Below are positions 1-13,857 of a stretch of 64,000 bases of DNA, piece after piece. How positions within the stretch are numbered: position 1 is the stretch's first letter; the number at the start of each line of letters is the position of its first letter. This DNA comes from Candidatus Kaiserbacteria bacterium (GTDB lineage: Bacteria; Patescibacteriota; Minisyncoccia; Phycocordibacterales; UBA918). The translations under genes and the position numbers were made by a program. The stretch covers positions 30,969-94,968 of the forward strand of contig JAHQWD010000002.1 in the NCBI GenBank assembly GCA_019634005.1, read 5' to 3'. The notes under the pieces were generated by a model. That model made no database searches. It saw only the letters and a program-made list of their open reading frames with translations, and was not told the origin of the DNA.

Positions 1-573
1 AGCATTGTTCATTTTGTTCTTGCTTCGTGAGAGAAGCTTTGCGGTAACGTCCTTCACACCAGCAAGCTCTAGTACAGTACGTACTGAGCTACCAGCCACA
101 AGTCCGCGACCTGGTGCAGGCATGATCATTACCTCACTTGAAGCGTACTTTGTCTGTACGTCATGTGGGATGTGTCCATCCTTATTCATACGAACCGTGA
201 TCATGTTCTTCTTTGCATCACGGTATGCCTTCTCAATCGCGAGCTGTGTGTCCGTTGCCTTTCCAACTCCCACACCAACTTTACCGCGCTTGTCTCCGAT
301 CACCATCGCAACGCTGAAACTGAAACGGCGTCCTCCCGCCATCACACGCGTTACGCGGCGAATACCAATAAGCTGCTGTTCGAACTCTGGTCGCATACGC
401 TCCCCTCGGCGTCCACCTCCGCGACGGTTCTGTCGTCGTGGGCGACGTGGGTTTCTCTTGCGTGGTGCGTCCGTATCGTTCGCAGGCTTTGCAGTCTTGT
501 CTTCAGTAGCTGGAGCAGCCTTCTGCTCCTCTGTCGCTACTGCGCCTGTCTCCTTTTTTTCTGTATCTGTCAT
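1..573 (-). CDS. rpsE: 30S ribosomal protein S5 (partial; C-terminus runs off window start)
   Basis: Reverse-strand translation from ATG at 573 gives MTDTEKKE...RRGGGRRGERMRPEFEQQLIGIRRVTRVMAGGRRFSFSVAMVIGDKRGKVGVGVGKA, a typical S5; follows L18 in spc-operon order. Listed + strand ORF 5..661 is antisense artefact. Confidence 0.9.
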   Translation of the reverse strand, partial: MTDTEKKETGAVATEEQKAAPATEDKTAKPANDTDAPRKRNPRRPRRQNRRGGGRRGERMRPEFEQQLIGIRRVTRVMAGGRRFSFSVAMVIGDKRGKVGVGVGKATDTQLAIEKAYRDAKKNMITVRMNKDGHIPHDVQTKYASSEVMIMPAPGRGLVAGSSVRTVLELAGVKDVTAKLLSRSKNKMNNA

Positions 574-596
574 ACGCTTTAGAGTATTTCTTATAA

Positions 597-941
597 TTAG
601 AAGGTTAGCCCTCCGTTACGAGCACCGTCTGCAAGTGCAGCGATGTTCCCCTGGTACTTGAATCCACCACGGTCAAATACGATAGTGGTGATTCCTGCTT
701 TCTTTGCACCCTCTGCGATTGCAGTTCCTACTTCCGTAGCACGCTCAGTAGGAGTTGCCCCCTTTGCCTTACGTGTGTCAGCAGACACGAGTGTCTTTCC
801 AGTTACATCATCGATAAGCTGGGCGTAGAGTGCTCTGTTTGAGCGGAACACAGCCAAACGTGGCTTTTCTGCGGTTCCTGAAACACGCGCACGGATTCGT
901 GCATGTCGGCGTGTTCGCTGCATTGTTTTACTTGTGTTCAT
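597..941 (-). CDS. rplR: 50S ribosomal protein L18
   Basis: ORF 597..986; ...[31 protein letters not shown]... is L18. Start moved to ATG at 941 (1 nt after L6 stop, AAGAAGG upstream); 923 and 986 are alternatives. Confidence 0.9.
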
Positions 942-942
942 A

Positions 943-1476
943 CTACACTGCCTTCTTACCCTGCTTTCTAATAATGTATTCACCAACGTAGTGGATTCCC
1001 TTGCCCTTGTATGGCTCAGGCTCCTTCACGGCGCGGATGTTAGCGGCAAACTGCCCCACAACCTCCTTGTCCACTCCGTTTACGGTGATGGTGTTCTTTT
1101 CTACCGCTACCGTCACCCCTTCAGGTGCGGTGAGTTCCACTGGGTGAGAGAATCCAACGTTTAGCTTGATTCCATTTCCCTGTGCCTCTGCACGGTATCC
1201 TACTCCCTCAATCTCGAGCTTCTTCTCGAAACCTTCGGTAACTCCTTCGATCATGTTGCGTGCGTGTGACGCGTATGTTCCCCAAAGAGCGCGTGCGGCA
1301 ATTGTCTCCTTTACGGGTGCAAATGAAACGGTACCGTCTGCAATGGTAACCTCCACGTCCTTCTTGATAGGGCGTGTCAGTGTTCCCTTTGGTCCCTTTA
1401 CAGTGAGGATATCATCAGCAAAGGTAACCTCTACTCCAGAGGGGATCGCAATTGGTTGTTTTCCTAGTCGACTCAT
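943..1476 (-). CDS. rplF: 50S ribosomal protein L6
   Basis: [17 protein letters not shown]...[18 protein letters not shown]; start trimmed to conserved MSRLGK at 1476. Confidence 0.92.
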
Positions 1477-1480
1477 ACCG

Positions 1481-1861
1481 TTACCAAATAATGAATAATT
1501 CCTCACCTCCTACGTTCTGCTTACGCGCCTCCTCTCCTGTGAGGATCCCCGCAGGTGTAGAGATGATGCGTCGTCCCTGTCCAAACTTCACGGGGAAGAT
1601 GTCCGCAGACTTAACGTAGAGACGTCGTCCTGGCTTTGAAATACGACGTACGTCGCTCACCGCACCGTCCTTCAAGGTAAGTGCAAGTGTCTTCTTTGCC
1701 TTCTTTCCTTGCTTTTCTGCTCCTGCAAGATATCCCTCCTTTACGAGAACATCTGCAATAGCGTGCTTCAGCTTAGAATATGGAAGTTCTACCTCCTCCT
1801 TGCCAACCATGCTGGCGTTCTTGATACGAATGATCAAGTCTGATACTGGGTCGTTTACCAT
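1481..1861 (-). CDS. rpsH: 30S ribosomal protein S8
   Basis: [16 protein letters not shown]... typical S8 N-terminus; spc order. Confidence 0.95.
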
Positions 1862-2040
1862 GATGATTTCTTTACGCCTGGTAAATGCCCCTGCTGTGCC
1901 TCTTCACGGAAGCAGATACGACAGAGATCAAAATCTCGCATGTATCCACGACCACGACCGCACTTAAAGCACCGTCGTACGACGCGGCTTTTGAACTTTG
2001 GTGTACGCTGTGAGCGTACGATGATAGATGTTCGTGCCAT
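1855..2040 (-). CDS. rpsZ: 30S ribosomal protein S14 type Z (zinc-binding)
   Basis: 61 aa with [20 protein letters not shown] zinc-ribbon Cys pairs; overlaps rpsH start by 7 nt. Confidence 0.9.
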
Positions 2041-2220
2041 CTGTATATAGGGCTAACTATTAAAACGTTTGAAAAGTGGTCTCACCTAGAAGATGGTGAC
2101 CGTTCTCTCCTTCCGCGACTCTGGGTAGCGTAAAAAACGCGTTCCCGACGGTTTTCCTTCTGAAAAACGGGTCAGGTGCGTCTGTTTCTACGTAAGAGTG
2201 CGTAAAACGTTATGGGGGCT

Positions 2221-2249
2221 ACTTTACACGGTTTGGGGGTGGGTGTCAA
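2221..2249 (-). promoter_or_regulatory. Sigma70-like promoter TTGACA-17-TAAAGT (minus strand) for rpsZ-rpsH-rplF-rplR-rpsE, followed by ~180-nt leader
   Basis: Minus-strand read cattgacacccacccccaaaccgtgtaaagt; shares TTGACACC extended -35 with other promoters in window. Confidence 0.45.
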
Positions 2250-2304
2250 TGAGAAAAAGGATGTGAACAAAATAATTTTGTGATAGGATAATCGTAAGAT
2301 AGTT

Positions 2305-2634
2305 ATGGAATCAATGGGAATCATCACAAGCAAAAATCTTGCTCATCAGAGAGACAAGGGCGAAGATGTGCGTTTGTCGATACACTGTAATCTGAGCGAG
2401 GATACTGCTTTCAGCATTCTTAGTAAAAAACCAACCTTTATAGAAGGGTTCGCAGGTTTGGTTGACTTCAGGGGAATTGATAGTCAATTTGAATCAACAT
2501 TACTGGAAGATGAAAGCTTAAGCGATACGTTTTTTGTAGGATGCGACTGGAAGATGGTCGGGAATTACTTTAATAAAGCATTCAAAAATTATGAGCAAGA
2601 AAAAGAAGAAGAACAAGGAACTTTCAGCAAGTAA
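2305..2634 (+). CDS. hypothetical protein (island gene A)
   Basis: 109-aa ORF in AT-rich region, no recognisable motifs, no SD; overlaps next ORF by 44 nt. Confidence 0.35.
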   Translation: MESMGIITSKNLAHQRDKGEDVRLSIHCNLSEDTAFSILSKKPTFIEGFAGLVDFRGIDSQFESTLLEDESLSDTFFVGCDWKMVGNYFNKAFKNYEQEKEEEQGTFSK

Positions 2635-3088
2635 GCCTGTCCAAAAAGATTCTGAACCGGAAGTTGAAGTAATTAGAGATCCAAAAGGACAAGTTGTTGG
2701 TTTCAGCGCTAGTAAAGCAGAGTTTTTCTCAGGACCCTTACCTCACCCTGATTTACTTAATAAATATAAAGAAGTAGACCCGAACGTTTTAGAGACAATA
2801 ACACGCATGGCAGAACGTGAACAAACCGAAAGATTGAAACGACAAAATAAGATAGTCTTGTTTGTTGGCGGTAAATCAATATTGGGTCTGATTTTTGCTT
2901 TTTTTGTGGTGTTGGCAGGAATTGCTGCGGGAGTCTATCTGCTTATGCATGATAAATCTGCCGAAGGTTTGTTTGTAGGAATAGCACCTTTTGCAATAGT
3001 TGTTGGTACGTTTATCTTGCAAACCTATTGGGAAAAAGACGAGAAGGAAACAGAGAAGGACAAGGCTGATCTACAAGACAATATATAA
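2591..3088 (+). CDS. DUF2335-like membrane protein
   Basis: FSGPLPHPDLLNKYKEVDP motif followed by MAEREQTERLKRQNK and two TM helices matches my recollection of the DUF2335 family common on phages/ICEs; Lys-rich N-terminus. Confidence 0.55.
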   Translation: MSKKKKKNKELSASKPVQKDSEPEVEVIRDPKGQVVGFSASKAEFFSGPLPHPDLLNKYKEVDPNVLETITRMAEREQTERLKRQNKIVLFVGGKSILGLIFAFFVVLAGIAAGVYLLMHDKSAEGLFVGIAPFAIVVGTFILQTYWEKDEKETEKDKADLQDNI

Positions 3089-3096
3089 ACTATTCC

Positions 3097-3318
3097 CTAA
3101 TGAAGACTTCTATCAACGTACTCCCTCGCTTTTTGCATACCGTGAACAAGTGCTCTGTCATCTGAAATATTACCCTCAACATTTTCTATGACAGCATGGG
3201 TTCCTTCCCATCCATTTTTAACTTTCCTCATAACTTCCCACCTAATAGCACAATGATTCTTTAAACGGTTGTGAATATTAGAAGTCAGTAGATAATTTTT
3301 ATATATTTCTTCCATCAT
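3097..3318 (-). CDS. hypothetical small protein (island gene C, 73 aa)
   Basis: ORF 38 nt downstream of PIN-like gene on same strand; no motifs recognised. Confidence 0.35.
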   Translation of the reverse strand: MMEEIYKNYLLTSNIHNRLKNHCAIRWEVMRKVKNGWEGTHAVIENVEGNISDDRALVHGMQKAREYVDRSLH

Positions 3319-3356
3319 TGAGTTGTATTATAACCGACTACCATTTCAGATATGTT

Positions 3357-3794
3357 CTATTTAATATCCGATAAGGACTTAATGTCTATATCAGATTTAA
3401 ATTCATTTTTAATTCTTTTGGACAAGCCAACATCTCCAGTGAACACATAAATTGTTTCAGTGGGATCGAAAAGTTGTTCTTTCTTCAAAGCTGCAAATCT
3501 CTCAATCAAAGTATGAACGGAGGCTAAAATTGAGATATCGCCAAAGCCAGTCATGTTGAAAAAAGATCTTCCTCCGTGATTATTTAGCATTTCCTTATAC
3601 TTATTGACATAGATGGGCTCATCAAATTCATCAATGTCCGATAACCTCAGGATATTCTTGGGAAGCTTCTTACCAAAGATAGTTTGGGTCATCTCTACTT
3701 CTTCCACAACATCTGGTGCCATATAGTACTTTTTGGAAGGAGAAATTCCATTCTTAAAAATATATGTAATTCCATTTGAATCAATTAAATTCAT
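3357..3794 (-). CDS. PIN-like domain protein (putative nuclease/toxin; island gene D)
   Basis: 145 aa; N-terminal MNLIDSN (PIN beta1-like Asp), acidic PDVVEEVE, later GDISIL and FTGDVGL Asp positions compatible with a PIN/NYN fold; start ATG overlaps stop of upstream gene (ATGA). Confidence 0.4.
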   Translation of the reverse strand: MNLIDSNGITYIFKNGISPSKKYYMAPDVVEEVEMTQTIFGKKLPKNILRLSDIDEFDEPIYVNKYKEMLNNHGGRSFFNMTGFGDISILASVHTLIERFAALKKEQLFDPTETIYVFTGDVGLSKRIKNEFKSDIDIKSLSDIK

Positions 3795-5050
3795 AGACTT
3801 AGTTCACTTCTATACTTCAGAAAACCTTTTTTCTGTGGCGCTCCCCAGATTAAATGTTGCGCTTGAGTATTCGGCAATGTTCCACCTTTTATGCCCAAGT
3901 TTATTGTCTCAAAAGATTTTAGACCACAAAATTTACTTACAGAAGTTGAAACTTTAGGAGTTCTAGGATGGCCTGTGTTTTTCAATTTTATTGGTTTTGG
4001 CTTGAGACTATCAAATTCTGACGATGATATGACTCCTCTCCTTCTCAGAGTAACCAATAAAGCAGTTGGTGATACCTTGAACTTGTTTGCCAATTCATCT
4101 CGCCTACTCTCTGTGACCTTTGTCCCTCGAATTTTTTCTGTCTCTGAACGCGGTATGAGTAATTCTGAAGTTATTAAGTGAAGTCTTACCTCCTTAATAG
4201 TTGTTCCTGTAATTTTAATTGTAAAATTTGGCTCAAGTATAAATTCATATTGATCTAACCCAATAATCGTTAACAAATAAAACAAGGTGTATATCTGCCT
4301 ACTGGCAACTTCGTCCTGATTAGTTTCTGATGGCAGAAAAATGAAGGGGACATGGTCGTCTTTTATTGCAAAACCACTCGTATTTTTATAAACGCTACTT
4401 GGTACCACTCGTGTGTTCGGGAGAATCTTATGTGCAAGTGTTCCTTGCGAAACATTTATATTTTTGTTTCCCACCTTTTTTATTAGTGCTTCCAGAGTAG
4501 CTTCCTTCCCCCTATCCCGCCACATCCAGTCTCTATCAATGTCAAAATGGTCTAAGATTTTATCTGCAGCAGATTTTATACTTTCATACTTCAAAGACCC
4601 GCAAAAACTATTTGATGGAAAGATTCCTGTACTTACAAGATAATTTTGCTGACGAATCAACCGATCCACAATGCGTTTCGGAGTGATCTTTCCTTGTCCT
4701 TTCCTCTTGGCAACAATTTTCTTTGAGACCTTATGCTGCCTTTGAGTCTCAATATGATTAATTGTCTGGTTTAGGTTTGTCGTGCTAAGAAAGAACATCT
4801 GCCAAGGAATGAGTATTTTTTCGCTTTCTTCTTTCAGATTTTTGAATGTAATAGAACCAGCAGAAAATGCCTGCTGAAATATTTTTCTGTTTATAAGTTT
4901 TTCTTCGGGATAAAGGTTGAGAATTCTTTTAATAACAGAGTCATCTATCTCTACCGAATTCTGCCCATTTACTGACACCCACATACTTAATAGGATATTT
5001 TTGAGTTCTTTCGGACATAGTGCGCAACATATAGAGAAAGTAGCACACAA
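3791..5050 (-). CDS. hypothetical 419-aa protein with C-terminal helix-turn-helix-like segment (island gene E)
   Basis: Long ORF; RRDELANKFKVSPTALLVTLRRRGVIS resembles an HTH; no HExxH, P-loop or recombinase motifs seen. Track start is TTG at 5050 (SD-like AAAGGA 5 nt upstream); ATG at 4984 (MWVSVNGQ) alternative. Confidence 0.5.
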   Translation of the reverse strand: MCATFSICCALCPKELKNILLSMWVSVNGQNSVEIDDSVIKRILNLYPEEKLINRKIFQQAFSAGSITFKNLKEESEKILIPWQMFFLSTTNLNQTINHIETQRQHKVSKKIVAKRKGQGKITPKRIVDRLIRQQNYLVSTGIFPSNSFCGSLKYESIKSAADKILDHFDIDRDWMWRDRGKEATLEALIKKVGNKNINVSQGTLAHKILPNTRVVPSSVYKNTSGFAIKDDHVPFIFLPSETNQDEVASRQIYTLFYLLTIIGLDQYEFILEPNFTIKITGTTIKEVRLHLITSELLIPRSETEKIRGTKVTESRRDELANKFKVSPTALLVTLRRRGVISSSEFDSLKPKPIKLKNTGHPRTPKVSTSVSKFCGLKSFETINLGIKGGTLPNTQAQHLIWGAPQKKGFLKYRSELSL

Positions 5051-5073
5051 AACATCCTTTTTCTAGGAGAGAA

Positions 5074-5105
5074 TTGACAATACACTTATATATGGTATCA
5101 TTCAA
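5074..5105. promoter_or_regulatory. Back-to-back divergent promoters: plus TTGACA(5074-5079)-16-TATCAT(5096-5101) for membrane gene; minus TTGAAT(5105-5100)-17-TATTGT(5082-5077) for island operon E-D-C
   Basis: Read directly: gaattgacaatacacttatatatggtatcattcaa; plus -35 overlaps minus -10. Confidence 0.4.
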
Positions 5106-5133
5106 CTTAGCATTTCCAATAGGGAGAAGACCG

Positions 5134-5481
5134 ATGGAAAATCAAAGTGCTGTTCTCTACCAAGATAAACCCTGGCTGAAGATTCTGGCATTCATTGTCA
5201 TCTGGATGATTCTTGCTGGCGAGGTTTGGGCGTATCTGGAACTTTTGCGCACCGTCAATGACCACAAGCGGAGCGCCTTCGGCGCACATGTTCCCATCCC
5301 CGACGGCGTTGGGATCATGTATATGACCATGCTGTTCTCAGTAGGGCCCGTTGGCCCCTTTCTGATACAGCTCGTCGGAAGCATGTTCGGCCAAATCATC
5401 ATCGCCGCTGTTCTTCTGCTCGGAGCAGGGGGCAATTGGCTGCTCTACAGTATCCTCGAGAATTTCGGATACTTCACCTAA
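5134..5481 (+). CDS. hypothetical polytopic membrane protein (115 aa, higher GC)
   Basis: ATG at 5134 preceded by SD AGGGAGAAG; hydrophobic ILAFIVIWMILAGEVWAYL and IIIAAVLLLGAGGNWLLY; track ORF 5074 uses TTG upstream. Confidence 0.55.
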   Translation: MENQSAVLYQDKPWLKILAFIVIWMILAGEVWAYLELLRTVNDHKRSAFGAHVPIPDGVGIMYMTMLFSVGPVGPFLIQLVGSMFGQIIIAAVLLLGAGGNWLLYSILENFGYFT

Positions 5482-5506
5482 GGGATCCCGAGAACGACCC
5501 GACCAA

Positions 5507-5576
5507 CCGCCGAACACACCCGTTCGGCGGTTTAACTTTACTCTTCCACCAAAAAACCACCCTCCCGGGTGGTTTT
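5507..5576. terminator. Two stem-loops; second (5553-5576, aaaaccaccc-tccc-gggtggtttt) is a bidirectional rho-independent terminator between membrane gene (+) and rplE (-)
   Basis: ccgccgaacacacccgttcggcgg + tttaacttta, then aaaaaaccaccctcccgggtggttttt; T/A runs both sides. Confidence 0.6.
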
Positions 5577-5580
5577 TCAT

Positions 5581-6117
5581 CTACTCAGCCTCAACCTTCT
5601 GAAGCGGAAGTCCGACATGCCGAAGCAATGCCTCTGCCTCTTCTTTGGTTTTCGCAGTAGTCACGAGTGTGATAGCAAATCCAAACACATCTCGAATCTC
5701 TTCATCTGAAGTCTCAGGGAAGATCGTGTGCTCCTTGATTCCCAAGGTGTAGTTCCCCATCTCATCGATGGCGGTCACCTTAAGACCACGGAAGTCACGG
5801 GTGTTTGGAAGCGCAACGTGAATCAACTTATCGAGGAAGTCATTCATACGCTCCCCACGAAGGGTTACCTGATATCCAATGATATCTCCCTCACGAAGCT
5901 TAAATGTCGCAATAGACTGCTTCGCAGGACGTGGAGATGGCTTCTGTCCGGTAATCTTCGCAAGACGATCTTGCATAAGCTCGATCTTCTTCTTGTCGTC
6001 GATCTTTCCCGTACCAGTTGATACCACCACCTTCGTGATGCGAGGTGCCTGCATCACATTCTTGTAAGAGAATGTGCCTTTCAGTGCCTCAAATACAGAT
6101 TGTAGTTTTTCTTTCAT
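5581..6117 (-). CDS. rplE: 50S ribosomal protein L5
   Basis: MKEKLQSVFEALKGTFSYKNVMQAPRITKVVVSTGTG... typical L5. Confidence 0.95.
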   Translation of the reverse strand: MKEKLQSVFEALKGTFSYKNVMQAPRITKVVVSTGTGKIDDKKKIELMQDRLAKITGQKPSPRPAKQSIATFKLREGDIIGYQVTLRGERMNDFLDKLIHVALPNTRDFRGLKVTAIDEMGNYTLGIKEHTIFPETSDEEIRDVFGFAITLVTTAKTKEEAEALLRHVGLPLQKVEAE

Positions 6118-6125
6118 AATACGTT

Positions 6126-6425
6126 CTATATCTTAGTACCCTTTGGACGAGTAACACGAACTTTCTTGCCGTCCACCACATCGTATCCCACACGTGCTGG
6201 CTTCTTACCATCAAGGATCGCAACGTTAGAGACGTGGATTGGCATAGGCTTCTCCACAATCTGTCCCGTAGATCCACGACGACGTGCCTTCTGGTGGCGA
6301 ACCGCAACGTTCACCCCATCAACGATGACCTTATCCGCAGAAGAGATAACCTCAAGGACTTCTCCGTCCTTTCCTTTATCCTTTCCGGAAATCACCATTA
6401 CTTTGTCTCCTTTGTGTATTTTCAT
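6126..6425 (-). CDS. rplX: 50S ribosomal protein L24
   Basis: MKIHKGDKVMVISGKDKGKDGEVLEV... KOW motif; start trimmed to ATG at 6425 (track ORF extends to 6515 over rplN). Confidence 0.92.
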   Translation of the reverse strand: MKIHKGDKVMVISGKDKGKDGEVLEVISSADKVIVDGVNVAVRHQKARRRGSTGQIVEKPMPIHVSNVAILDGKKPARVGYDVVDGKKVRVTRPKGTKI

Positions 6426-6435
6426 AGGCAATTCG

Positions 6436-6807
6436 TTACACAACCTCAGGTGCGAGGGATACAATTTTCTGATAACCCGCTTCAGCAATCTCACGTGGGA
6501 TTGGACCGAACACACGGTTTGCGCGTGGTTCTGGCTTCTCCTTGTCCACGAGGACTACTGCATTCTCATCAAATGAGATGTATGAACCATCCTTGCGGCG
6601 GAATGGCTTTCGCTGACGTACGACAACGCCATACACAACGTCCTTCTTCTTTACGAGCTTACGTGGCTCAGCAGTCTGTACAGAGAGTACAACCTTCTCA
6701 CCGAGCTCTGCGTAGCGCTTCTTCGATCCTCCGAGAACCTTGAACACGCGTCCAATCTTTCCTCCGGAGTTATCTGCAATCTTTACGATAGTCTGTGGTT
6801 GAATCAT
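6436..6807 (-). CDS. rplN: 50S ribosomal protein L14
   Basis: MIQPQTIVKIADNSGGK... classic L14. Confidence 0.95.
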   Translation of the reverse strand: MIQPQTIVKIADNSGGKIGRVFKVLGGSKKRYAELGEKVVLSVQTAEPRKLVKKKDVVYGVVVRQRKPFRRKDGSYISFDENAVVLVDKEKPEPRANRVFGPIPREIAEAGYQKIVSLAPEVV

Positions 6808-6818
6808 AAGTCAATTTA

Positions 6819-7076
6819 TTACTTAACCAAGGTAAAGCGCTTACGCTTTGAAATTGGACGTGTTTCTGTAATCTCGACCTTGTCTCCCATCTGTGCAGTG
6901 TTCCCTGCATCATGCACAAGATACTTCTTGCGACGACGCATGAACTTTTTGTACTTTGGATGCTTCACGTACCGCTCCACAAGAACGGTGATCGTGTCCT
7001 GCATCTTTGTAGACACAACGGTACCACGTAGGGTACGTCCGCCGGTCTTTGTTTTTGTTTCGTTTTCCATAGACAT
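6819..7076 (-). CDS. rpsQ: 30S ribosomal protein S17
   Basis: ...RTLRGTVVSTKMQDTITVLVERYVKHPKYKK... S17 OB-fold signature. Confidence 0.93.
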   Translation of the reverse strand: MSMENETKTKTGGRTLRGTVVSTKMQDTITVLVERYVKHPKYKKFMRRRKKYLVHDAGNTAQMGDKVEITETRPISKRKRFTLVK

Positions 7077-7080
7077 TTCT

Positions 7081-7272
7081 CTACACGTTCTTACGCGCGT
7101 TTAATTCAGTGAGAGCCTGCGCAATCTCCTTTTTCGCAGATCGCATAGCCTTCACATCTCGCATGCCACTTCCTGCAGATGCAAAGCGAAGTTCACGAAG
7201 CGCCTCTCGCTTCTCCTTCACCACCTTCTGTAGGTCTGCATCACTTTTGTTCTGAATATCTTTCATAGGCAT
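7081..7272 (-). CDS. rpmC: 50S ribosomal protein L29
   Basis: 63 aa, KSDADLQKVVKEKREALRELRF typical L29. Confidence 0.9.
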   Translation of the reverse strand: MPMKDIQNKSDADLQKVVKEKREALRELRFASAGSGMRDVKAMRSAKKEIAQALTELNARKNV

Positions 7273-7706
7273 TATGCAGTTGTCTCTTCACGAGTGACAA
7301 AACGTGCTTTTATAGGGAGTTTCGCGGTCGCCTTGCGGAATGCCTCGCGCGCAACGTCCTCAGAAACACCGTCAATTTCGAATAATACTCGACCAGGGCG
7401 TACCTCGAATACGAAGTGATCAGGATCTCCCTTACCCTTACCCATACCTACCTCAGCAGGCTTCTTGGTAATTGGCTTGTCAGGGAAAATACGAATCCAG
7501 ATCTTACCTGTCTTTCCGAGTGTACGAGAGATCACACGACGTGCCGCCTCAATCTGATTTGAACGTACACGTGACTGTGAAGTCGCCTTCAAACCGTACG
7601 CACCAAACGATACGGTGATACCACGAGTATCAGGGCGCTGCAGCTTCTCTGGGTGCTTACGCCCAACCTGCCATTTACGATGCTTTACTTTCTTTGGAAA
7701 CAACAT
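7272..7706 (-). CDS. rplP: 50S ribosomal protein L16
   Basis: [16 protein letters not shown]... typical L16. Confidence 0.95.
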
Positions 7707-7711
7707 AAGCC

Positions 7712-8425
7712 TTATCCGCGGTTATTCTCTCGACCTCCTCGGCGTGGTGCAGACGCACCATCTTTGCGATCTCCGAAGATATCTCCCTTATAAATCCAGA
7801 CCTTGATTCCGATTACACCGTACGGAAGAATTGCTCGCTCGGAAGCGAAATCAATGTCAGCACGAAGAGTCTGTAGTGGAATACGTCCCTTCTTTGCCTC
7901 CTCCTTACGTGCCATCTCAGCGCCACCAAGACGACCAGATACGATAATTCGTACTCCAAGTACGTCACGGTTCGCCATTACCTTCTCTACCGTCTGCTTC
8001 AGCACACGACGGAATGGCATACGCTTCTCAAGTCCTTCTACCACCATCTGTCCTACCACAGATGCACTTGATTCTGGAGAGCGGAGCTCTTCGATATCAA
8101 GTTTCACCTCAGGCTTTACAGAAAGCTTCAGTGTACGAAGCAGCATATCTACCTTCTTACGAAGTTTCTGTGCTCCCTCTCCACTACGTCCGATCACGAG
8201 ACCTGGACGTGAAGTAGTGATGATGATGCGATAGATGTTCTCATCTCGCTCGATCTCAACGCTCGCAACGTACATACCCTTGAGCTCTTTGCTCAATAGC
8301 TTACGTACAGACGCGTCGGTACGAACATACTCACGAAAACGCTTTGGGTCATTCGTAATCCAGCGAGACTGCCAGTCACGAATGATTCCAAGACGCTGTG
8401 CATATGGATGTGCTACGTGTGTCAT
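7712..8425 (-). CDS. rpsC: 30S ribosomal protein S3
   Basis: MTHVAHPYAQRLGIIRDWQSRW... KH domain GRSGEGAQKLRK; start trimmed to 8425 (track ORF overlaps rplV). Confidence 0.93.
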   Translation of the reverse strand: MTHVAHPYAQRLGIIRDWQSRWITNDPKRFREYVRTDASVRKLLSKELKGMYVASVEIERDENIYRIIITTSRPGLVIGRSGEGAQKLRKKVDMLLRTLKLSVKPEVKLDIEELRSPESSASVVGQMVVEGLEKRMPFRRVLKQTVEKVMANRDVLGVRIIVSGRLGGAEMARKEEAKKGRIPLQTLRADIDFASERAILPYGVIGIKVWIYKGDIFGDRKDGASAPRRGGRENNRG

Positions 8426-8435
8426 AGTGAATACT

Positions 8436-8759
8436 TTATCCGAGCTCCACGGTGATGTGGCTACTGCGGCGGTTAATAGGTGATGCAGATCCACGAGCGC
8501 GCGGCATATACTTTCGCATAACCGTACCCTTGTCGACTGCTACCTTAGTGATTTTTAGTGATTCGACCTCCTTCCCTGCCTGCTTTGCATTTGCTGCAGC
8601 AGAACGGATAACCTTTGCAAACGGCTCTGCAGCACGCTTCTCCACAAACTGAAGCGTATGAAGTGCCTCGTTCACCTTCTTCCCGCGTACAAGGTCTGCC
8701 AAGAGGCGTACCTTACGTGGAGACTGGCGATAATTTTTGAGTACTGCTTTCATAAACAA
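8436..8759 (-). CDS. rplV: 50S ribosomal protein L22
   Basis: MFMKAVLKNYRQSPRKVRLLADLVRGKKVNEALHTLQF typical L22. Confidence 0.93.
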   Translation of the reverse strand: MFMKAVLKNYRQSPRKVRLLADLVRGKKVNEALHTLQFVEKRAAEPFAKVIRSAAANAKQAGKEVESLKITKVAVDKGTVMRKYMPRARGSASPINRRSSHITVELG

Positions 8760-8764
8760 TCAGA

Positions 8765-9091
8765 TTATGCGGCCTTAGCTGCCTTAGCTGCTGCGATTTC
8801 CGCTTCCTTCTTCTTCTGCTCAAGCTCCTTCTGCATCTTACCTCCGTGACGGATGAACTTCTTCGTTGGAGAGAACTCTCCAAGACGATGTCCTACCATC
8901 TCTTCAGATACGAAGACCTCGACGTGATCCTTTCCGTTGTGTACCCCAAAGGTAAAGCCAACCATCTCTGGTGAGATCATAGAATCTCGTGCCCAGGTCT
9001 TGATAGTTCCTGCTTCCTTAGGATTCTTTCCAGAAACTTTCTTCAAAAGCTTCTCGTCAACGTATGGACCTTTGTATAGTGATCGTGACAT
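8765..9091 (-). CDS. rpsS: 30S ribosomal protein S19
   Basis: [19 protein letters not shown]...[18 protein letters not shown]; start trimmed to conserved MSRSL at 9091. Confidence 0.93.
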
Positions 9092-9237
9092 AACGAAAAA
9101 ACGCGCAAAAGCGCCCACTTGAGAGTCTCTTATAAAGGTATGTAACGGTCACCCTTAGTAGAGACCCCCAAAACTTATAATTGGTGCCATTTCCTTCCTG
9201 CCAGGGCCGAAAATGACTGAGGTTTTGGAACGGGGCT

Positions 9238-9266
9238 ATAGTATCCGAAATACGTGGTGGTGTCAA
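9238..9266 (-). promoter_or_regulatory. Strong sigma70-like promoter TTGACA-17-TACTAT (minus) for rpsS...rplE
   Basis: Minus read ttgacaccaccacgtatttcggatactat; perfect -35 with 17-nt spacer; immediately follows terminator of upstream small ORF. Confidence 0.55.
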
Positions 9267-9270
9267 TATA

Positions 9271-9300
9271 AAAAGAAAACGCCGAGCCCGAGGGCATGGC
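9271..9300 (-). terminator. Rho-independent terminator after small membrane ORF
   Basis: 8-bp stem AAAACGCC/GGCGTTTT with internal mini-hairpin, then U-tract on minus strand (cgttttctttttat). Confidence 0.5.
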
Positions 9301-9331
9301 GTTTTGGTTGTTTTGGTTGCTGCCGCTACGT

Positions 9332-9478
9332 CTAGTAGCTTGCGACCACCATAGCGGGAACTGCGATGCAGGCAACCACGGCGGCTGTTAGAAGCAGCCC
9401 TGCCAGCAGACACTTTGTCCAAAATAGGGGACGGTCTGCTGCTTTTGCAGCGGCGACGTTTTTAGCAAGATCAGACAT
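9332..9478 (-). CDS. small single-TM protein (48 aa) MSDLAKNVAAAKAADRPLFWTKCLLAGLLLTAAVVACIAVPAMVVASY
   Basis: Not in 60-aa track as a separate ORF (inside spurious 9057..9422); found by reading: SD AAGGAG 7 nt before ATG at 9478, stop TAG at 9334-9332, terminator downstream. Confidence 0.5.
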   Translation of the reverse strand: MSDLAKNVAAAKAADRPLFWTKCLLAGLLLTAAVVACIAVPAMVVASY

Positions 9479-9581
9479 TTGTTTTCTCCTTGTGAGGGCG
9501 ATTCACCACCTGGTGAATACTTTTATACCCTCACTTTCTAATTATAGTATATCATCTATAGACACTTCTGTCAAGTAATTT

Positions 9582-9830
9582 CTATCGTATTCTCTGAAAT
9601 ATGGCTCTATGTAAGCGTAGAATACGCTTAAACACCCGTGTAGACGCTACCCACCGCTCTATAGGCTCTAATACACCACAGAGAATAAGGGCTAGTACGA
9701 GTAAAAAGAGCCCCAGAAGCACCTCAACCGTCGCTTCAAGCCCATAGAGGGCATAGGTAGTACTTGATATAAACGCAGACGGAATCACAATCGTTACATA
9801 CGCAGCCGCTTTCAGGACACTCTTTGTCAT
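9582..9830 (-). CDS. small membrane protein (82 aa)
   Basis: Start trimmed to ATG at 9830 preceded by GGAGG; two predicted TM helices (VTIVIPSAFISSTTYALYGL, LLGLFLLVLALILCGVL). Confidence 0.45.
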   Translation of the reverse strand: MTKSVLKAAAYVTIVIPSAFISSTTYALYGLEATVEVLLGLFLLVLALILCGVLEPIERWVASTRVFKRILRLHRAIFQRIR

Positions 9831-9874
9831 TGTGCCTCCATTGTATACCGCATCCAAAGAAAAAGGCGTCCGTA

Positions 9875-10210
9875 TCAACAGACGCCTCCTGGATACATCG
9901 GTATCCACTTCTTTGGATGGGATACGCCGTAACGCACCCGCAGATAGTGTCGGAGGGACCAGTCATTAACAATCTGACACACCCTCTGCCAACACTTTCG
10001 TATGAACTCTCGGTGTATGCCAACACGTATAGCAATCAGCAAATACGTGCCGATAAACACCGAGTATTGCAGGAGCCACAAAGCAACCAGAACGCAGAGT
10101 AGTATCTGCATCAGCCCGAAGTTCTGATAGAGCCACACAGAAATTCCTGCCGTACTTGCCCATGGACCGAGAACAAGTACAAGAAAAAACGAATGGATTC
10201 TCTCTAACAT
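9875..10210 (-). CDS. small membrane protein (111 aa)
   Basis: Start trimmed to ATG at 10210 preceded by AGGGGAGAG; hydrophobic FFLVLVLGPWASTAGISVWLY, ILLCVLVALWLLQYSVFIGTYLLIAI. Confidence 0.45.
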   Translation of the reverse strand: MLERIHSFFLVLVLGPWASTAGISVWLYQNFGLMQILLCVLVALWLLQYSVFIGTYLLIAIRVGIHREFIRKCWQRVCQIVNDWSLRHYLRVRYGVSHPKKWIPMYPGGVC

Positions 10211-10257
10211 GTTCTCTCCCCTTATTTGATCAGCCGACCAAAATCCTACCACAAAAC

Positions 10258-10286
10258 AAAAAAGCCCCCAAGGGGGCTTTTTTGAT
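10258..10286. terminator. Palindromic rho-independent terminator directly after rplB (aaaaaagcccccaagggggcttttttg)
   Basis: 7-bp GC-rich stem with A/T tracts both sides; terminates the rplC-rplB unit before the inserted small genes. Confidence 0.65.
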
Positions 10287-10297
10287 AAGAAATATCT

Positions 10298-11158
10298 CTA
10301 TTTCTTTGAAGTCATAAGCTTACCTGGCTTACGACGAGATACGATAAGTCGATCAGAGTACTTCTTCGGCTTACGTGTCTTTTGTCCCTTACCAGTAGGG
10401 CGACCCTGCTTGGTACGCTGACGACGATGTCCTCGTGGTGAGCGTCCCTCTCCACCTCCGTGTGGGTGGTCTACCGGGTTACGTGCTGCTCCACGTGTCT
10501 TCGGACGAAGACCCATGTGACGTGCACGTCCTGCCTTACCAATAGTGACGAGCTGGTGCTCTTCGTTAGACACCTCTCCGACGGTTGCCCATGCGGTAGA
10601 GATAACCTTACGAATCTCAGTAGATGGCAGCCTGATCTGCGTATATCCAGAGTCATGCGCTACTACCTCAGCACGGTTTCCTGCAGAACGCACGAGACGT
10701 GCACCTGCGTTTGGCTTAAGCTCGATGTTGTACACGAAGGTACCTGAAGGAATCTTGCCAAGCGGAAGACGGTTTCCTGTCTTCGGCTTTGCCTCCTCTG
10801 ACACCTCAAAGGTGTCTCCTACCTTCATGTCCTGTGGTGCAAGGATGTATCGTCGTTCTCCATCTGCATAGAGTACGAGTGCGATGAATCCTGAGCGATT
10901 TGGATCGTACTCGATAGATTCAATCTTCGCTGGTACACCCTTCTTGTCGAACTTAAAGTCGATCTGTCGGTAGGTACGTTTGTTACCTGCACCACGGTAG
11001 TGGGTGGTAATACGTCCCTGACTGTTACGTCCACCGGTAGATCGCTTACCCTTCGTAAGTGACTTAAGCGGCTTGTTTTTCGTAGTTGAGAGTTTCTCGC
11101 GGTAATCGATAACACTTGCTCCACGACGGCCGGCTGATGTTGGTTTGTATTTTTTCAT
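10298..11158 (-). CDS. rplB: 50S ribosomal protein L2
   Basis: MKKYKPTSAGRRGASVIDY...GGGEGRSPRGHRRQ typical L2. Confidence 0.95.
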   Translation of the reverse strand: MKKYKPTSAGRRGASVIDYREKLSTTKNKPLKSLTKGKRSTGGRNSQGRITTHYRGAGNKRTYRQIDFKFDKKGVPAKIESIEYDPNRSGFIALVLYADGERRYILAPQDMKVGDTFEVSEEAKPKTGNRLPLGKIPSGTFVYNIELKPNAGARLVRSAGNRAEVVAHDSGYTQIRLPSTEIRKVISTAWATVGEVSNEEHQLVTIGKAGRARHMGLRPKTRGAARNPVDHPHGGGEGRSPRGHRRQRTKQGRPTGKGQKTRKPKKYSDRLIVSRRKPGKLMTSKK

Positions 11159-11168
11159 ACGTTTTTAC

Positions 11169-11522
11169 TTAGGCAAGCGTAATAGTGTCTCCCTCCTTGA
11201 GGTAGACATACGCTTTCTTAAGCCCTTTAACACCAATAACTCGACCTTTTGTTCGCTTCATAACACGGCGTGGCTGCTGCGTTACCGTACGCACCTTCAC
11301 CGGTGTTACTCCGTAGAGTTCCTTTACTGCATCCCGTACGTCGTATTTAGACGCATCACGACGAATCTCAAAGGTATATACATTGTTGTCTACACCAAGG
11401 AGCGCCTTCTCCGTCACACGAGGACGAATGATCACTCCAGAGATATCACGTGGCGCTACAGCGCGCGGTGCCTCTTTCTTCTCTACGGTCTTCTCTTCTT
11501 TCTTAGATCCAAAGATTCCCAT
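11169..11522 (-). CDS. rplW: 50S ribosomal protein L23
   Basis: ...IIRPRVTEKALLGVDNNVYTFEIRRDASKYDVRDAVKELYGV... typical L23. Confidence 0.92.
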   Translation of the reverse strand: MGIFGSKKEEKTVEKKEAPRAVAPRDISGVIIRPRVTEKALLGVDNNVYTFEIRRDASKYDVRDAVKELYGVTPVKVRTVTQQPRRVMKRTKGRVIGVKGLKKAYVYLKEGDTITLA

Positions 11523-11527
11523 ACGCG

Positions 11528-12208
11528 TTATTTAGCCTTTGCGGAAGATCCAACACGAGTCTCGAAGATTTCGAGCGCCGCTTCTGGCTCTGCCACAATG
11601 ACGTACTTAAAGGTGAGTAAATCGACCGGGTTAATGTCCTTTGCTTGAGACACTACCACGTTTCCAAAGTTACGGAAACTACGTTCTACGTTCTCATCAC
11701 GTGATGGAAGAACGATAAGTGCAGCATTCTTTCGCTTTGTGGAAAGCATCTCAGACCCCTTGATGCTACCGAGAGCAGTGATGACGTTCTTCGCATCAGC
11801 TGCCTTTGGTGCCTCAAATCCGAATGCATCCACGAAGAGAATCTCCTTGTCTGCGTTCTTCTTAGAAAGTACGGTTGCAAGCGCCTTGGCACGCACCTTC
11901 TTGTTGATCTTCTTGCTGTAGTCCTTTTCAGAGAGTGGTCCATGGGTGACTCCTCCTCCTGTCCAGATTGGAGAACGACGAGATCCGTGACGCGCACGTC
12001 CAGTACCCTTCTGCTTCCACGGCTTCTTTCCTCCACCGCGAACCTCAGAACGGTCCTTCGCATCTGCTGTCCCCGCACGTGCGTTCGACTGCATAGATAC
12101 CACCACCTCGTGAACGAGGTCTGCGTTCCATGCCACGTCAAACACCTCCTTTGGCAAAGTGATATCACTCACTTTCTTTCCTTCAATAGAGTATACGTTT
12201 GCTTTCAT
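11528..12208 (-). CDS. rplD: 50S ribosomal protein L4
   Basis: ...GGGKKPWKQKGTGRARHGSRRSPIWTGGGVTHGP... typical L4. Confidence 0.95.
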   Translation of the reverse strand: MKANVYSIEGKKVSDITLPKEVFDVAWNADLVHEVVVSMQSNARAGTADAKDRSEVRGGGKKPWKQKGTGRARHGSRRSPIWTGGGVTHGPLSEKDYSKKINKKVRAKALATVLSKKNADKEILFVDAFGFEAPKAADAKNVITALGSIKGSEMLSTKRKNAALIVLPSRDENVERSFRNFGNVVVSQAKDINPVDLLTFKYVIVAEPEAALEIFETRVGSSAKAK

Positions 12209-12211
12209 ATG

Positions 12212-12832
12212 CTAGATGCTACGAACTTCGACTAATGTTCCCTTTCGACCTGGTACGGCTCCTGATACCACGAGGACATTGTCCTCTGTGTTCACCTGAA
12301 GCACTTTAAGATTCTTTACACTGACGCGGTCACTTCCCATGCGTCCCGCCATACGTGTTCCTTTTTGCACCCGCTGGATGCCTCCAATACCGATAGATCC
12401 CGGCGCACGAAGGGTATGCTTCTGTCCGTGAGATCCAGGACCTCCACCGAAGTTGTATCGTTTTACAACTCCCTGGAATCCCTTACCCTTTGAAACCGCA
12501 GAAACCACAATCTGGTCACCTGGCTCAAAGACGGATGCATCCATAGTCTGTCCTACTTCCATTCCTTCGATGTTCTCATCGAAGTTAGTACGTGGACGAA
12601 ACTCCTTCATGAACTTCGCCGCTCCTCCCTCGATACCACGCTGTGCTTTCGCTACACGTGACTCTTTCTGAGGAACAGTCGCGATCTGTACGGCATCATA
12701 CCCATCCTTCTCTGTACCCTTCACCTGCGTGATAGTTGCAGGGGATACCCGGAGGATGGTCGCAGCCATAACCTCTCCGTCTTCGTTGAAGACTTGGGTC
12801 ATGCGCTCCTTAGTACCGACAATGAATTTCAT
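12212..12832 (-). CDS. rplC: 50S ribosomal protein L3
   Basis: MKFIVGTKERMTQVF...KGKGFQGVVKRYNFGGGPGSHG typical L3. Confidence 0.95.
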   Translation of the reverse strand: MKFIVGTKERMTQVFNEDGEVMAATILRVSPATITQVKGTEKDGYDAVQIATVPQKESRVAKAQRGIEGGAAKFMKEFRPRTNFDENIEGMEVGQTMDASVFEPGDQIVVSAVSKGKGFQGVVKRYNFGGGPGSHGQKHTLRAPGSIGIGGIQRVQKGTRMAGRMGSDRVSVKNLKVLQVNTEDNVLVVSGAVPGRKGTLVEVRSI

Positions 12833-13117
12833 TACTGAATATGTCTTTGTGACTTATAAAAGCTTTCAAGTGACCTCCAAAACAAAAACCGCATATAGCG
12901 GAGCACAAGCTCACGAATATACGCGGTCTTTGTGCCCATTGGTCCGTCCGTAAACGTACGTAGGTCTTTTAAAAGCTGTGGGCAGTATACGGGTATTTGG
13001 GGAGATTGCAAGCTTTGAGCTTATGCGTATCCCCGTGCGAAAGAAGTCCTACACACAAACTCCCAAAGCCGTAACCGTGAAATAATATCTGTGGCATCAT
13101 TAGTATACAAAAGTCCC

Positions 13118-13160
13118 TTGAACACGCGAAGTGTCCAAGGGACAAAGGGTCAAAGACCAA
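13118..13160 (-). terminator. Rho-independent terminator after inserted high-GC gene
   Basis: Minus read gtcccttggacacttcgcgtgttcaagggac + ttttgtatac. Confidence 0.5.
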
Positions 13161-13170
13161 AGTGCAGAGG

Positions 13171-13766: not shown

Positions 13767-13857
13767 TGACGTTTTTTCCTTTCCAGGATTTCGTCGTTGA
13801 CAAAATACTCTAAACTACTTTTTGGTATACTATATCTACAGAAGTTTGTCAAACACA

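Follow-up and report, generated by a model that had tools for sequence, protein, structure and literature searches.

A variable gene slot at a fixed break between L5 and S14 in the S10-spc ribosomal protein cluster of Paceibacteria

The closest described counterparts of the locus analysed here are the flexible genomic islands, or replacement-type integration hot spots, of bacterial pangenomes, with which it shares conserved, collinear flanks, a content that differs in nearly every relative, and a cargo partly atypical in composition and with many toxin-antitoxin, defence and membrane genes. It differs from them in its tiny size (0.1 to ~8 kb) and in its flanks, which are ribosomal protein genes of the S10-spc cluster, where bacterial gene order is normally at its most rigid. 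It also has a terminator at one edge and a promoter at the other, and no tRNA, integrase or direct repeats were found at the slot. We measured variability against the junctions inside the ribosomal cluster, and "hotspot" is meant relative to that cluster, not to the genome. For the regulation of the flanking genes, the nearest precedent is the E. coli spc operon, in which S8 autoregulates through an mRNA site at the rplE start that mimics 16S rRNA helix 21 (PMC3616713), an element limited to Gammaproteobacteria. For part of the cargo, they are the three-component toxin-antitoxin-like systems in which HTH-DUF955 genes (COG2856, ImmA/IrrE) lie upstream of PIN-like toxins (DUF4411, COG2405; PMC5499597), and the CapH/CapP regulators of CBASS and related defence operons, in which the repressor CapH is cleaved by CapP, an active metalloprotease.

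In the window, by which we mean the whole stretch of 64 kb, taken from a Candidatus Kaiserbacteria (Patescibacteria) genome, six non-ribosomal open reading frames (A to F) separate rpsZ (1855-2040, minus strand), which encodes type Z ribosomal protein S14 and opens the S14-S8-L6-L18 transcription unit, from rplE (5581-6117, minus strand; Pfam Ribosomal_L5 and L5_C), which encodes L5 and closes the S19-to-L5 unit. The earlier note had seen the six genes correctly and had placed the inserted DNA at 2041-5580, limits that hold in part only: the variable DNA, which has no counterpart in the sister genome (L092), runs from 2251 to ~5503, and both ends of the wider interval are conserved, 2041-2250 being the leader and promoter of S14 and ~5504-5580 the terminators. 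The flanks of the sister genome are 89-94% identical to the window at the DNA level, with L5 97% identical, and blastn aligns window positions 1-2250 with 11406-13648 of that locus and 5509-9306 with 5816-9609, with nothing between. Read from these alignments, homology stops at window position 2250, at the -35 box of the S14 promoter, and resumes at ~5503-5509, just past the L5 terminators; the slot is therefore enclosed by a terminator on one side and a promoter on the other, and its breakpoints are exact. In place of A-F, the sister genome carries a PadR-like gene and a PspC-domain gene.

The same junction is open across the lineage. In 160 related loci, from 80 species-representative genomes and 80 metagenome contigs, the S10-spc cluster opens at just three junctions, namely S10/L3, L2/S19 and L5/S14, and the median gaps at the remaining 14 are 6-27 nt. 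Among the 80 genomes, the median gap is 382 nt at S10/L3, 1,776 nt at L2/S19 (above 150 nt in 45 of 46) and 1,034 nt at L5/S14 (above 150 nt in 63 of 64), with medians from -4 to 27 nt at the other 14; the 80 metagenome contigs show the same pattern, with L5/S14 open in 46 of 48 loci. Across all related loci the shortest L5/S14 gap measures 98 nt and the longest exceeds 7,700 nt. What fills it turns over between genomes: 102 of 117 gap ORFs had no blastp match to any gap ORF of another locus (E 1e-4), a count based on a crude calling (at least 60 aa, longest non-overlapping) in which some "singletons" are probably not genes, and their Pfam families are mixed, including HicA, ParE, Phd, Band_7, LemA, DsbA, GGDEF and aromatic amino-acid lyase, among others. 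By tblastn, no homologue of A-F was found in the 160 loci. These genes are indeed accessory, and no relative carries the same set here, whereas a set shared by all relatives would have spoken against the earlier note.

Both edges of the slot are conserved. On the L5 side, a bidirectional intrinsic terminator with U runs on both strands (5552-5577) directly follows the L5 stop codon, and a second hairpin (5505-5532), which probably terminates F on the plus strand, forms the right edge; these are the two terminator hairpins that had been proposed at 5507-5576. They fold strongly (z = -4.3 and -6.1) and are conserved in the sister genome, where 5552-5577 is identical and homology ends just beyond 5505-5532. 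The upstream unit would end immediately 3' of L5. On the S14 side, the left edge is a promoter on the minus strand (TTGACA-17-TAAAGT, 2221-2249), which was found by our scan, as it had been in the earlier note, and is conserved base for base in the sister genome; promoter-like boxes stand at the equivalent position in relatives. The unit S14-S8-L6-L18 and onward would start from this promoter, and the earlier view that the downstream ribosomal genes have a promoter and leader of their own is supported.

The leader, of ~175 nt, contains a hairpin (2067-2114, minus strand) that copies the S8 binding site in helix 21 of 16S rRNA and is a candidate target of S8 autoregulation. A covariance model built from 30 relatives matches the leader of the window at 38.7 bits and, in 1.15 Mb of sequence, finds one match per locus, always just upstream of S14. 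The hairpin covaries: compensatory changes are seen in 10 of its 12 pairs, and 92% of cells pair, a share that stays at or below 47% after the partner is slid. Its usual core, AAGUC...GAUACU, equals E. coli 16S positions 595-599 and 639-644, while the subgroup of the window deviates, with ACGG...GAGACC where AAG...GAUACU is usual; no Rfam family was matched. In common with the E. coli mRNA site, it has the internal loop that reproduces the S8 site (G597-C643, U598-A640, A642, A595/A596-U644) and a position in the S8-encoding transcript, upstream of translationally coupled genes, but instead of spanning the rplE start codon it stands in a separate unit, 20-35 nt before the rpsZ start. Since the hairpin copies its binding site, S8 may bind there, and repression by S8 of its own unit is plausible.

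The content of the slot in the window appears to have two layers. The larger would be a horizontally acquired, AT-rich block of 2.8 kb (2252-5064) that lies directly against the S14 promoter, and the smaller the orphan gene F. GC is 0.33-0.40 across ~2250-5070 and 0.46-0.51 in the flanks, and the block is the most deviant segment of the 64 kb: with every other segment of the same size as reference, its tetranucleotide distance from the window average has z = 9.4 and its GC z = -5.5. It is compositionally foreign. GC at third codon positions is 0.30-0.38 in genes A-E, 0.64 in F and 0.39-0.52 in host genes, and the segment is therefore mosaic. Composition thus agrees with both earlier impressions, that the segment is AT-richer than the flanking ribosomal genes and that it is a mosaic.

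The block is bracketed by a perfect inverted repeat of 13 nt, whose left arm (AGAAAAAGGATGT; 2252-2264, plus strand) begins at the left breakpoint and whose right arm (5052-5064, minus strand) marks the boundary with gene F, where GC climbs from 0.36 to 0.47-0.55. No further copy with up to one mismatch exists in the 64 kb, and a repeat of this length was reached in 0 of 2,000 local shuffles; at least two copies occurred in 2 of 100 shuffles of the window, which is modest support for a repeat that is short and whose position was judged after seeing it. Gene F (5134-5481, plus strand, 115 aa) is separate from the AT-rich acquisition. Convergent with L5 and missing from the sister genome, it has a GC content that is host-like or higher, resembles a small membrane protein, as judged from its hydrophobic sequence, and has only itself as a match among 5.8 billion proteins. 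Of the "back-to-back" promoters described at 5074-5105, the plus-strand site upstream of F does score (5074-5101; TTGACA-16-TATCAT, with TG before the -10 box) and the second promoter does not. The former is a consensus match only: it is the top score of the scan (11 of 12 positions), in a region where 11 promoter-like sites were found and 10.0 were expected from shuffles, that is, with no enrichment.

Within the block, ORF A (2305-2634, plus strand, 109 aa; KTR10_00435), with a third-position GC of 0.38, is unassigned in function, having no match in Pfam, NCBIfam or PADLOC and only insignificant ones in PHROG (E 0.09 or worse). ORF B (2591-3088, plus strand, 165 aa) is the DUF2335-like membrane protein of the earlier note, an identification upheld by Pfam PF10097 (E = 2.4e-6; 27.8 bits, cut-off 25) and phrog_3996 (8e-27); the family is found in prophages, and tblastn matches at 30-34% identity come from Streptococcus, Leptospira and Pseudomonas phages. 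ORF C (3097-3318, minus strand, 73 aa; KTR10_00445) had no family match in profile searches.

The remaining cargo is a two-gene module, E-D. ORF D (3357-3794, minus strand, 145 aa) is a putative PIN-like nuclease with an intact acidic tetrad, as suggested by its AlphaFold model (pLDDT 91), whose best matches among solved structures are the PIN domains of Rrp44 and Utp23 (TM ~0.5-0.57, E 2e-3 or weaker), and by residues D5, E32, D86 and D121, which are invariant in 53 homologues; no Pfam PIN family was matched. ORF E (3791-4984, minus strand, 397 aa), its putative regulator or antitoxin, has the IrrE/CapP fold (COG2856, M78) in its C-terminal half and lacks the HExxH zinc motif, and therefore cannot act like the ImmA/IrrE proteases. 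Homologues form 174 clusters for E and 61 for D, at no more than 62% identity to the proteins of the window; all named ones are from Paceibacteria or Parcubacteria, and the 4-nt overlap of the two genes is retained in homologous loci. Their neighbours include large serine recombinases in three loci (L081, L082, L088) and, in a fourth (L089), an element with a tyrosine integrase, AlpA and a VapE-type primase; one pair sits within a type I restriction system, flanked by hsdS and hsdR, and others have Eco57I-type methylases, SMODS, AIPR or Fic nearby. From the fold of E, the acidic tetrad of D and these integrase, restriction-modification and defence neighbours, E-D is most likely a mobile pair of the toxin-antitoxin or abortive-infection/defence type, in which a nuclease effector, D, would be restrained by E through binding or through transcriptional repression.

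The HTH/DUF955/PIN-like systems resemble E-D in gene order: a gene with the DUF955/IrrE fold comes first and overlaps, stop codon with start codon, the gene of a small PIN-like protein in which four acidic residues are conserved. They also resemble it in occurring within defence islands and type I restriction-modification loci. In contrast to them, the E family lacks the HExxH motif throughout, the N-terminal half of E (~200 aa) has no assigned fold, no clear Xre-type HTH was detected, D belongs by sequence neither to DUF4411 nor to any Pfam PIN family, and both families have so far been seen only in Paceibacteria. E also differs from CapP in having no metal-binding motif, and its partner is a predicted nuclease rather than a small HTH repressor.

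The cargo is truly foreign, lying in a gap held open across Paceibacteria, and as in the earlier note, no integrase and no flanking direct repeats of the att type were found in the slot by profile and repeat searches. The cargo most likely entered either by homologous recombination in the ribosomal flanks, which are highly conserved, or on an element whose integrase has since been lost. A specific form of the latter, that the block is a decayed integrative element (prophage, satellite or ICE-like) deprived of its recombinase gene, is compatible with the slot model and concerns mechanism only. It would fit the sharp block edges marked by the inverted repeat, the prophage family of B, and the serine recombinases and integrase element near E-D homologues; serine recombinases leave no long direct repeats. 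It fits less well that no recombinase gene or fragment was detected in 2041-5580, that the 25 Pfam families listed, of 29 found, in ~109 slot ORFs of relatives include no integrase or transposase, that the repeat sequence was not found next to other E-D modules, and that E has no match in a viral contig collection; we consider this origin possible and place it well short of even odds.

The original proposal was that a mobile island recently split an intact, cotranscribed rplE-rpsZ-rpsH operon, the S14 promoter having arisen or been recruited as a consequence. The genes are contiguous in most bacteria (the rplE-rpsN gap of E. coli is 14 nt), and the clearly foreign block abuts the -35 box of that promoter. 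Against this, 109 of the 112 related loci with both genes have an open junction, and relatives whose cargo is quite different or almost absent conserve the promoter, the leader hairpin and the terminators, the shortest gaps being ~100-190 nt, so that the break predates the present cargo. Insertion into an otherwise contiguous operon is contradicted by this lineage-wide open junction with conserved edges, and we regard the proposal as improbable.

Still less probable is an assembly chimera, in which foreign reads were joined into a Kaiserbacteria contig. The source is a metagenome-assembled genome, and composition changes abruptly at 2251 and 5064, but the gap recurs at the same junction in independent assemblies of 160 relatives, the contig spans 215 kb, the E and D families are confined to Paceibacteria-type genomes, and the edges are a -35 box and terminators rather than repeats that mislead assemblers, the only repeat being of 13 nt. 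That the slot genes are lineage-specific ribosome or translation factors co-regulated with ribosomal proteins, as their place in the cluster and the strand that C, D and E share with the ribosomal genes might suggest, is the least credible reading and is contradicted by the absence of conservation at this position: none recurs here in the 160 loci, the sister genome included. The genes are also walled off by a terminator and promoters of their own, and E-D homologues occur in defence and mobile contexts, not beside ribosomal genes.

With the junction open in nearly all loci and its terminator and promoter edges conserved, the operon break at L5/S14 is ancestral and lineage-wide, and the cargo alone is recent. 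As a whole, the best explanation, to which we assign a probability of roughly 0.8, is that the S10-spc cluster of this Paceibacteria branch is not one operon but is cut at three fixed junctions. The DNA from terminator to promoter would be free of constraint and may serve as a hypervariable cargo slot, with different genes in almost every genome.

Three junctions of the Paceibacteria ribosomal protein cluster are fixed openings, and the gap between L5 and S14 in the window, at one of them, is a case of a hypervariable cargo slot; the finding of the earlier note is real, and more general than first stated. The window belongs to a 215-kb contig of a Candidatus Kaiserbacteria MAG, as exact protein matches show, and its S10-spc cluster lies on the minus strand, where L5 (rplE, 5581-6117, minus strand) and S14 (type Z, rpsZ, 1855-2040, minus strand) stand 3,540 nt apart; in E. 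coli, the rplE-rpsN gap is 14 nt. We measured every junction of the cluster in 80 species-representative genomes, gathered via L5 (62-82% identity) and all of them Paceibacteria/Parcubacteria-type MAGs, and found fourteen junctions to be tight (median gap between -4 and 27 nt) and three to be open: S10-L3 (median gap 382 nt; >150 nt in 8/10 and >500 nt in 5/10), L2-S19 (1,776 nt; 45/46 and 39/46) and L5-S14 (1,034 nt; 63/64 and 47/64). The same pattern is seen in 80 metagenome contigs, with L5-S14 open in 46/48 and L2-S19 in 31/32, and the corresponding gaps in the window measure 1,071, 1,206 and 3,540 nt. As L5-S14 is open across related genomes, the break in the operon is ancestral to the group and was not caused by an island, and the earlier picture of an island splitting a contiguous rplE-rpsZ operon does not stand against an open junction in 63 of 64 genomes and 46 of 48 metagenome contigs.

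The extent of the variable DNA was delimited by comparison with a sister genome (L092, a metagenome contig), whose L5 is 97% identical to that of the window and whose ribosomal-gene DNA is 89-94% identical. Positions 1-2250 of the window align to L092 11406-13648 and positions 5509-9306 to L092 5816-9609, and the DNA between these two stretches has no alignment to L092. At the left edge, identity begins at 2250, adjoining the S14 promoter at its -35 hexamer (TTGACA, 2244-2249), and at the right edge it spans the L5 stop, a terminator (5552-5577) and a hairpin (5505-5532), and ends at ~5503. The variable DNA therefore runs from 2251 to ~5503, ORF F included, and the slot is exactly the space from terminator to promoter. 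The S14 promoter and the two terminator hairpins predicted in the earlier note are both borne out, the -35 box being conserved in L092 and both hairpins lying within the L092 identity. The slot of L092 spans 1.8 kb and holds, on the ribosomal strand, a PadR-like ORF (120 aa) and a PspC-domain membrane ORF (398 aa), both named from their sequence motifs. The S10-L3 slot is also unlike between the two genomes, and the L2-S19 slot is shared only in part.

Across the lineage, the content of the slot turns over. Counting ORFs of at least 60 aa, 102 of the 117 found in L5-S14 gaps have no blastp match to the gap ORFs of other loci (E 1e-4), and the largest family has 3 members. Their Pfam matches are varied, encompassing HicA, ParE, Phd, Band_7, LemA, DsbA/thioredoxin, GGDEF, AAA_14/DUF4143, aromatic amino-acid lyase and glutathionylspermidine synthase, with no integrase or transposase among the matches listed (25 of 29 Pfam families). 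In about 14 of the 47 gaps of at least 500 nt, the GC content departs from that of the flanks by at least 0.05, in either direction. As for the cargo of the window, no homologue of ORFs A to F was found by tblastn in the 160 loci (80 genomes and 80 metagenome contigs), and relatives thus do not carry the same genes at this position.

The cargo comprises the six non-ribosomal ORFs listed in the earlier note, which are also the six in the NCBI annotation (KTR10_00435 to KTR10_00460); homologues set the start of ORF E at 4984 (397 aa), and ORF F starts at 5134. GC content is 0.33-0.40 across ~2250-5070 and 0.46-0.51 outside, and the block 2252-5064, compared to all other equal-size windows of the 64 kb, has a tetranucleotide distance of z = 9.4 and a GC of z = -5.5. 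Third-position GC is 0.30-0.38 in A-E, 0.64 in F and 0.39-0.52 in host genes. These values therefore support both the AT-rich segment and the mosaic make-up described before: the composition of 2252-5064 is unlike that of the host, a deviation that F does not share, and the slot has conserved flanks and a content that differs among relatives. ORF B had been described as a DUF2335-like membrane protein, which agrees with the NCBI annotation (DUF2335 domain-containing protein) and with a match to Pfam PF10097 (DUF2335) above the gathering score (27.8 bits, cut-off 25); phrog_3996 is matched too, and phages of Streptococcus, Leptospira and Pseudomonas contain weak homologues. No relatives of F were found among 5.8 billion proteins, and searches of the six ORFs against NCBIfam and PADLOC gave only insignificant matches, with CapP against E at 0.041.

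At either end of the AT-rich block stands one arm of a perfect inverted repeat of 13 nt (2252-2264 and 5052-5064), the left arm beginning at the L092 breakpoint and the right arm lying at the GC jump before F. A repeat of this length was reached in 0 of 2,000 local shuffles; its two copies are the only ones in the window at up to 1 mismatch, and two or more copies occurred in 2 of 100 shuffles. This suggests, with modest support, that the AT-rich block entered as one unit beside the promoter. No target duplication is visible at the repeat-bounded block. In related loci, every near-match to the repeat is located in the part of L14 that codes for KKKDV, and none lies beside other E-D modules, so the repeat is not part of a conserved element. 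Each arm has an outward-facing TTGACA -35 box just outside it, at distances of 2 nt and 9 nt (box and arm together 2244-2264 and 5052-5079), and the repeat could equally well be a shared upstream promoter element or regulator site as the two termini of an element. We rejected the idea that the repeat extends into the TTGACA boxes, since the left one is the -35 box already resident there, conserved in L092. Consistent with the earlier note, no integrase or transposase domain was found in the six ORFs, no tRNA near the slot and no direct repeats at its edges, where only the 13-nt inverted repeat is present; candidate att-type direct repeats at the island edges belong to short, imperfect and chance-like families. 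For the route of entry, both a decayed integrative element and homologous recombination through the conserved flanks are possible.

ORFs E and D form a module of their own. We found 174 homologue clusters for E (best 62% identical), widened to 473 by profile search, and 61 for D (best 60%); every named cluster with E or D homologues comes from Paceibacteria or Parcubacteria, and the two genes are always paired, with a 4-nt overlap. In loci that carry the pair elsewhere, its neighbours are a large serine recombinase (L081, L082 and L088), a tyrosine integrase, AlpA and a VapE-type primase (L089), hsdS on one side and hsdR on the other, both from a type I restriction system (L084 and L085), or, in others, Eco57I-type methylases, AIPR, SMODS with DUF6602, or Fic; in L091, only housekeeping genes and an RHS protein lie nearby. 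In L084 (8001-9634) and L085 (4280-5913), the pair sits between hsdS and the ORF preceding hsdR, with the hsdS stop overlapping the E start, and is thus inside the type I restriction-modification operon. A chimeric assembly is an unlikely source of the slot in the window, as its edges coincide with functional elements, its architecture is repeated in relatives, and the E and D families are native to this phylum.

D fits a PIN-like nuclease with a conserved acidic active site: D5, E32, D86 and D121 are invariant, and among solved structures Rrp44 and Utp23 give the best matches to its predicted model (pLDDT 91) by their PIN domains; the match probability is 0.99-1.0 for Rrp44 chains, and the TM-score only ~0.5-0.57. 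None of 53 family members matches any Pfam PIN family, DUF4411 included (E <=0.1). E has the character of an upstream partner with a DUF955/M78 (ImmA/IrrE) domain, and 20 of 70 family members match Peptidase_M78 weakly; HExxH is absent from the family, with no invariant histidine in the 70 sequences, and the motif position reads E..SRQIYTL, or E..GR.IFTL in distant relatives, which likewise lack HExxH. Profile searches with E and D against the sequences of solved structures returned nothing meaningful. A viral origin of E was considered and set aside, as E has no match in the viral contig collection. PMC5499597 proposed three-component HTH-DUF955-PIN systems, which this arrangement resembles, but two of their defining features are missing here: the zinc motif, and membership of the PIN partner in a PIN family by sequence. 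With about even confidence, we read E and D as a pair of toxin-antitoxin or abortive-infection type, E restraining D without proteolysis. The module adds an uncharacterised combination of an IrrE-fold and a PIN-like protein to the defence and toxin-antitoxin repertoire of this lineage, whose genomes are very small.

On the promoter side of the slot, the 230 nt upstream of S14 in relatives contain promoter-like boxes followed by a conserved hairpin. In an alignment of 30 sequences, changes on both sides are seen in 10 of its 12 pairs, 92% of the cells pair (34-47% with the partner slid), and 0 of 500 shuffles reach the observed score. By a covariance model, 37 of the 80 related genome loci contain the hairpin, each in a single copy, as does the window (2067-2114, minus strand, 38.7 bits); all 38 matches at E <=0.1 in 1.15 Mb are on the coding strand and directly upstream of S14, and the related locus L078 has one extra weak match (E 0.14) on its opposite strand. 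The usual core, 5'-AAGUC...GAUACU-3', is identical to positions 595-599 and 639-644 of E. coli 16S rRNA (rrsH sequence), and the core G-C and U-A are invariant in 30/30, as is the equivalent of A642; we take the invariant G-C, U-A and bulged A to be G597-C643, U598-A640 and A642 of the S8-helix 21 complex. In the subgroup of the window, G-C replaces A-U at 596-644, and 641 is a G. From this sequence likeness, we infer that S8 may bind the rpsZ leader hairpin. In the S14 unit, S8 comes second, with a start that overlaps the S14 stop, so that translational coupling would pass on a block at the S14 start. Rfam gave no match at E <=1 in window 1-8000, which makes the hairpin a candidate new ribosomal leader, and only sub-threshold, chance-level matches in 8700-14400. 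No 16S rRNA gene on which to follow co-variation with the leader occurs in the window or the related loci. In contrast to E. coli, where the S8 target straddles the rplE start, the hairpin here precedes rpsZ; the E. coli type is confined to Gammaproteobacteria (PMC3616713), and the 20 leader candidates of PMC7247131 include no such S8 leader.

An independent S14-S8 unit would account for how the break can exist, and this unit, together with the lineage-wide opening of the junction, the turnover of its content and the edges set by L092, contradicts an insertion that split an intact operon. A ribosome-related role for the cargo is contradicted by its lack of any conservation.

The S8-like hairpin is also seen just upstream of S14 in the related loci L001-L054, with strict position and strong covariation. 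Ten loci of more distant relatives with a long non-Z S14 (L055, L060, L062, L064, L066, L068, L071-L073 and L079) have no S8-like hairpin and carry a GC-rich hairpin and T run (approximately GGCTCCCCGGAGCTATTTTT) directly before the start codon. In the second open junction of the window, L2-S19 (9119-10297, 1.2 kb), lie two ORFs, both small and hydrophobic (9582-9908 and 9875-10252, minus strand), with no Pfam match, and L092 conserves ~190 nt upstream of S19; lineage-wide, this opening (median ~1.75 kb) is mostly variable, yet has ORF families of 13 and 9 ORFs across loci. The third, S10-L3 (12833-13903), holds a 210-aa ORF (13171-13803, minus strand) with a third-position GC of 0.64 and no Pfam match. 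Conservation with L092 covers the ~184 nt upstream of L3, which fold strongly (z = -4.5) and may be another leader. Further along, the tuf and fusA genes (EF-Tu and EF-G) are separated by ~2.7 kb (15478-18213), with an alanine racemase gene (16093-17466, opposite strand) and a family-less 214-aa ORF (17521-18165) in between. The second most AT-rich kilobase of the window (46000-47430, GC 0.37) lies among tRNA-Pro, tRNA-Gly and tRNA-Arg genes, includes a 225-aa ORF with an Xre/CI-repressor-type HTH domain (46550-47227) and may be another small acquired islet.

We give a chance of roughly one in four to two linked ideas, that the openings are a gene-exchange platform and that the S8 control point was relocated to the rpsZ leader. 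The S10-L3, L2-S19 and L5-S14 openings would then not simply be gaps that the lineage tolerates: the ribosomal genes beside them, which hardly vary, would act as homology arms, through which DNA from other Paceibacteria would swap slot contents by homologous recombination with no need for an integrase, and the split of the spc operon would have been accompanied by a move of S8 autoregulation to a new rpsZ leader. Genomic islets, toxin-antitoxin-like modules and ribosomal leaders are known kinds of element; their placement here and the S8-site leader appear undescribed in the literature searched, where we found no published split cluster or S8 leader in these bacteria, a search that is incomplete and leaves novelty unproven.

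Ribosomal protein clusters are a textbook example of frozen gene order and the backbone of the marker sets by which uncultured bacteria are binned and placed. Here, three defined openings persist in the cluster of a large uncultured lineage, and their contents turn over even between sister genomes; genome curation calls for caution, as such segments may be flagged or removed by tools that judge by composition. As a candidate for ribosomal autoregulation, the S8-site hairpin before rpsZ is a clean one, in a phylum from which we know of no demonstrated case of this kind; if the linked ideas are true, the hairpin would be a previously undescribed class of ribosomal leader, and the most conserved part of the genome would carry its most variable genes, those for defence and toxin-antitoxin functions included. 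The openings provide a precise and easily found place at which to follow gene gain and loss in Patescibacteria.
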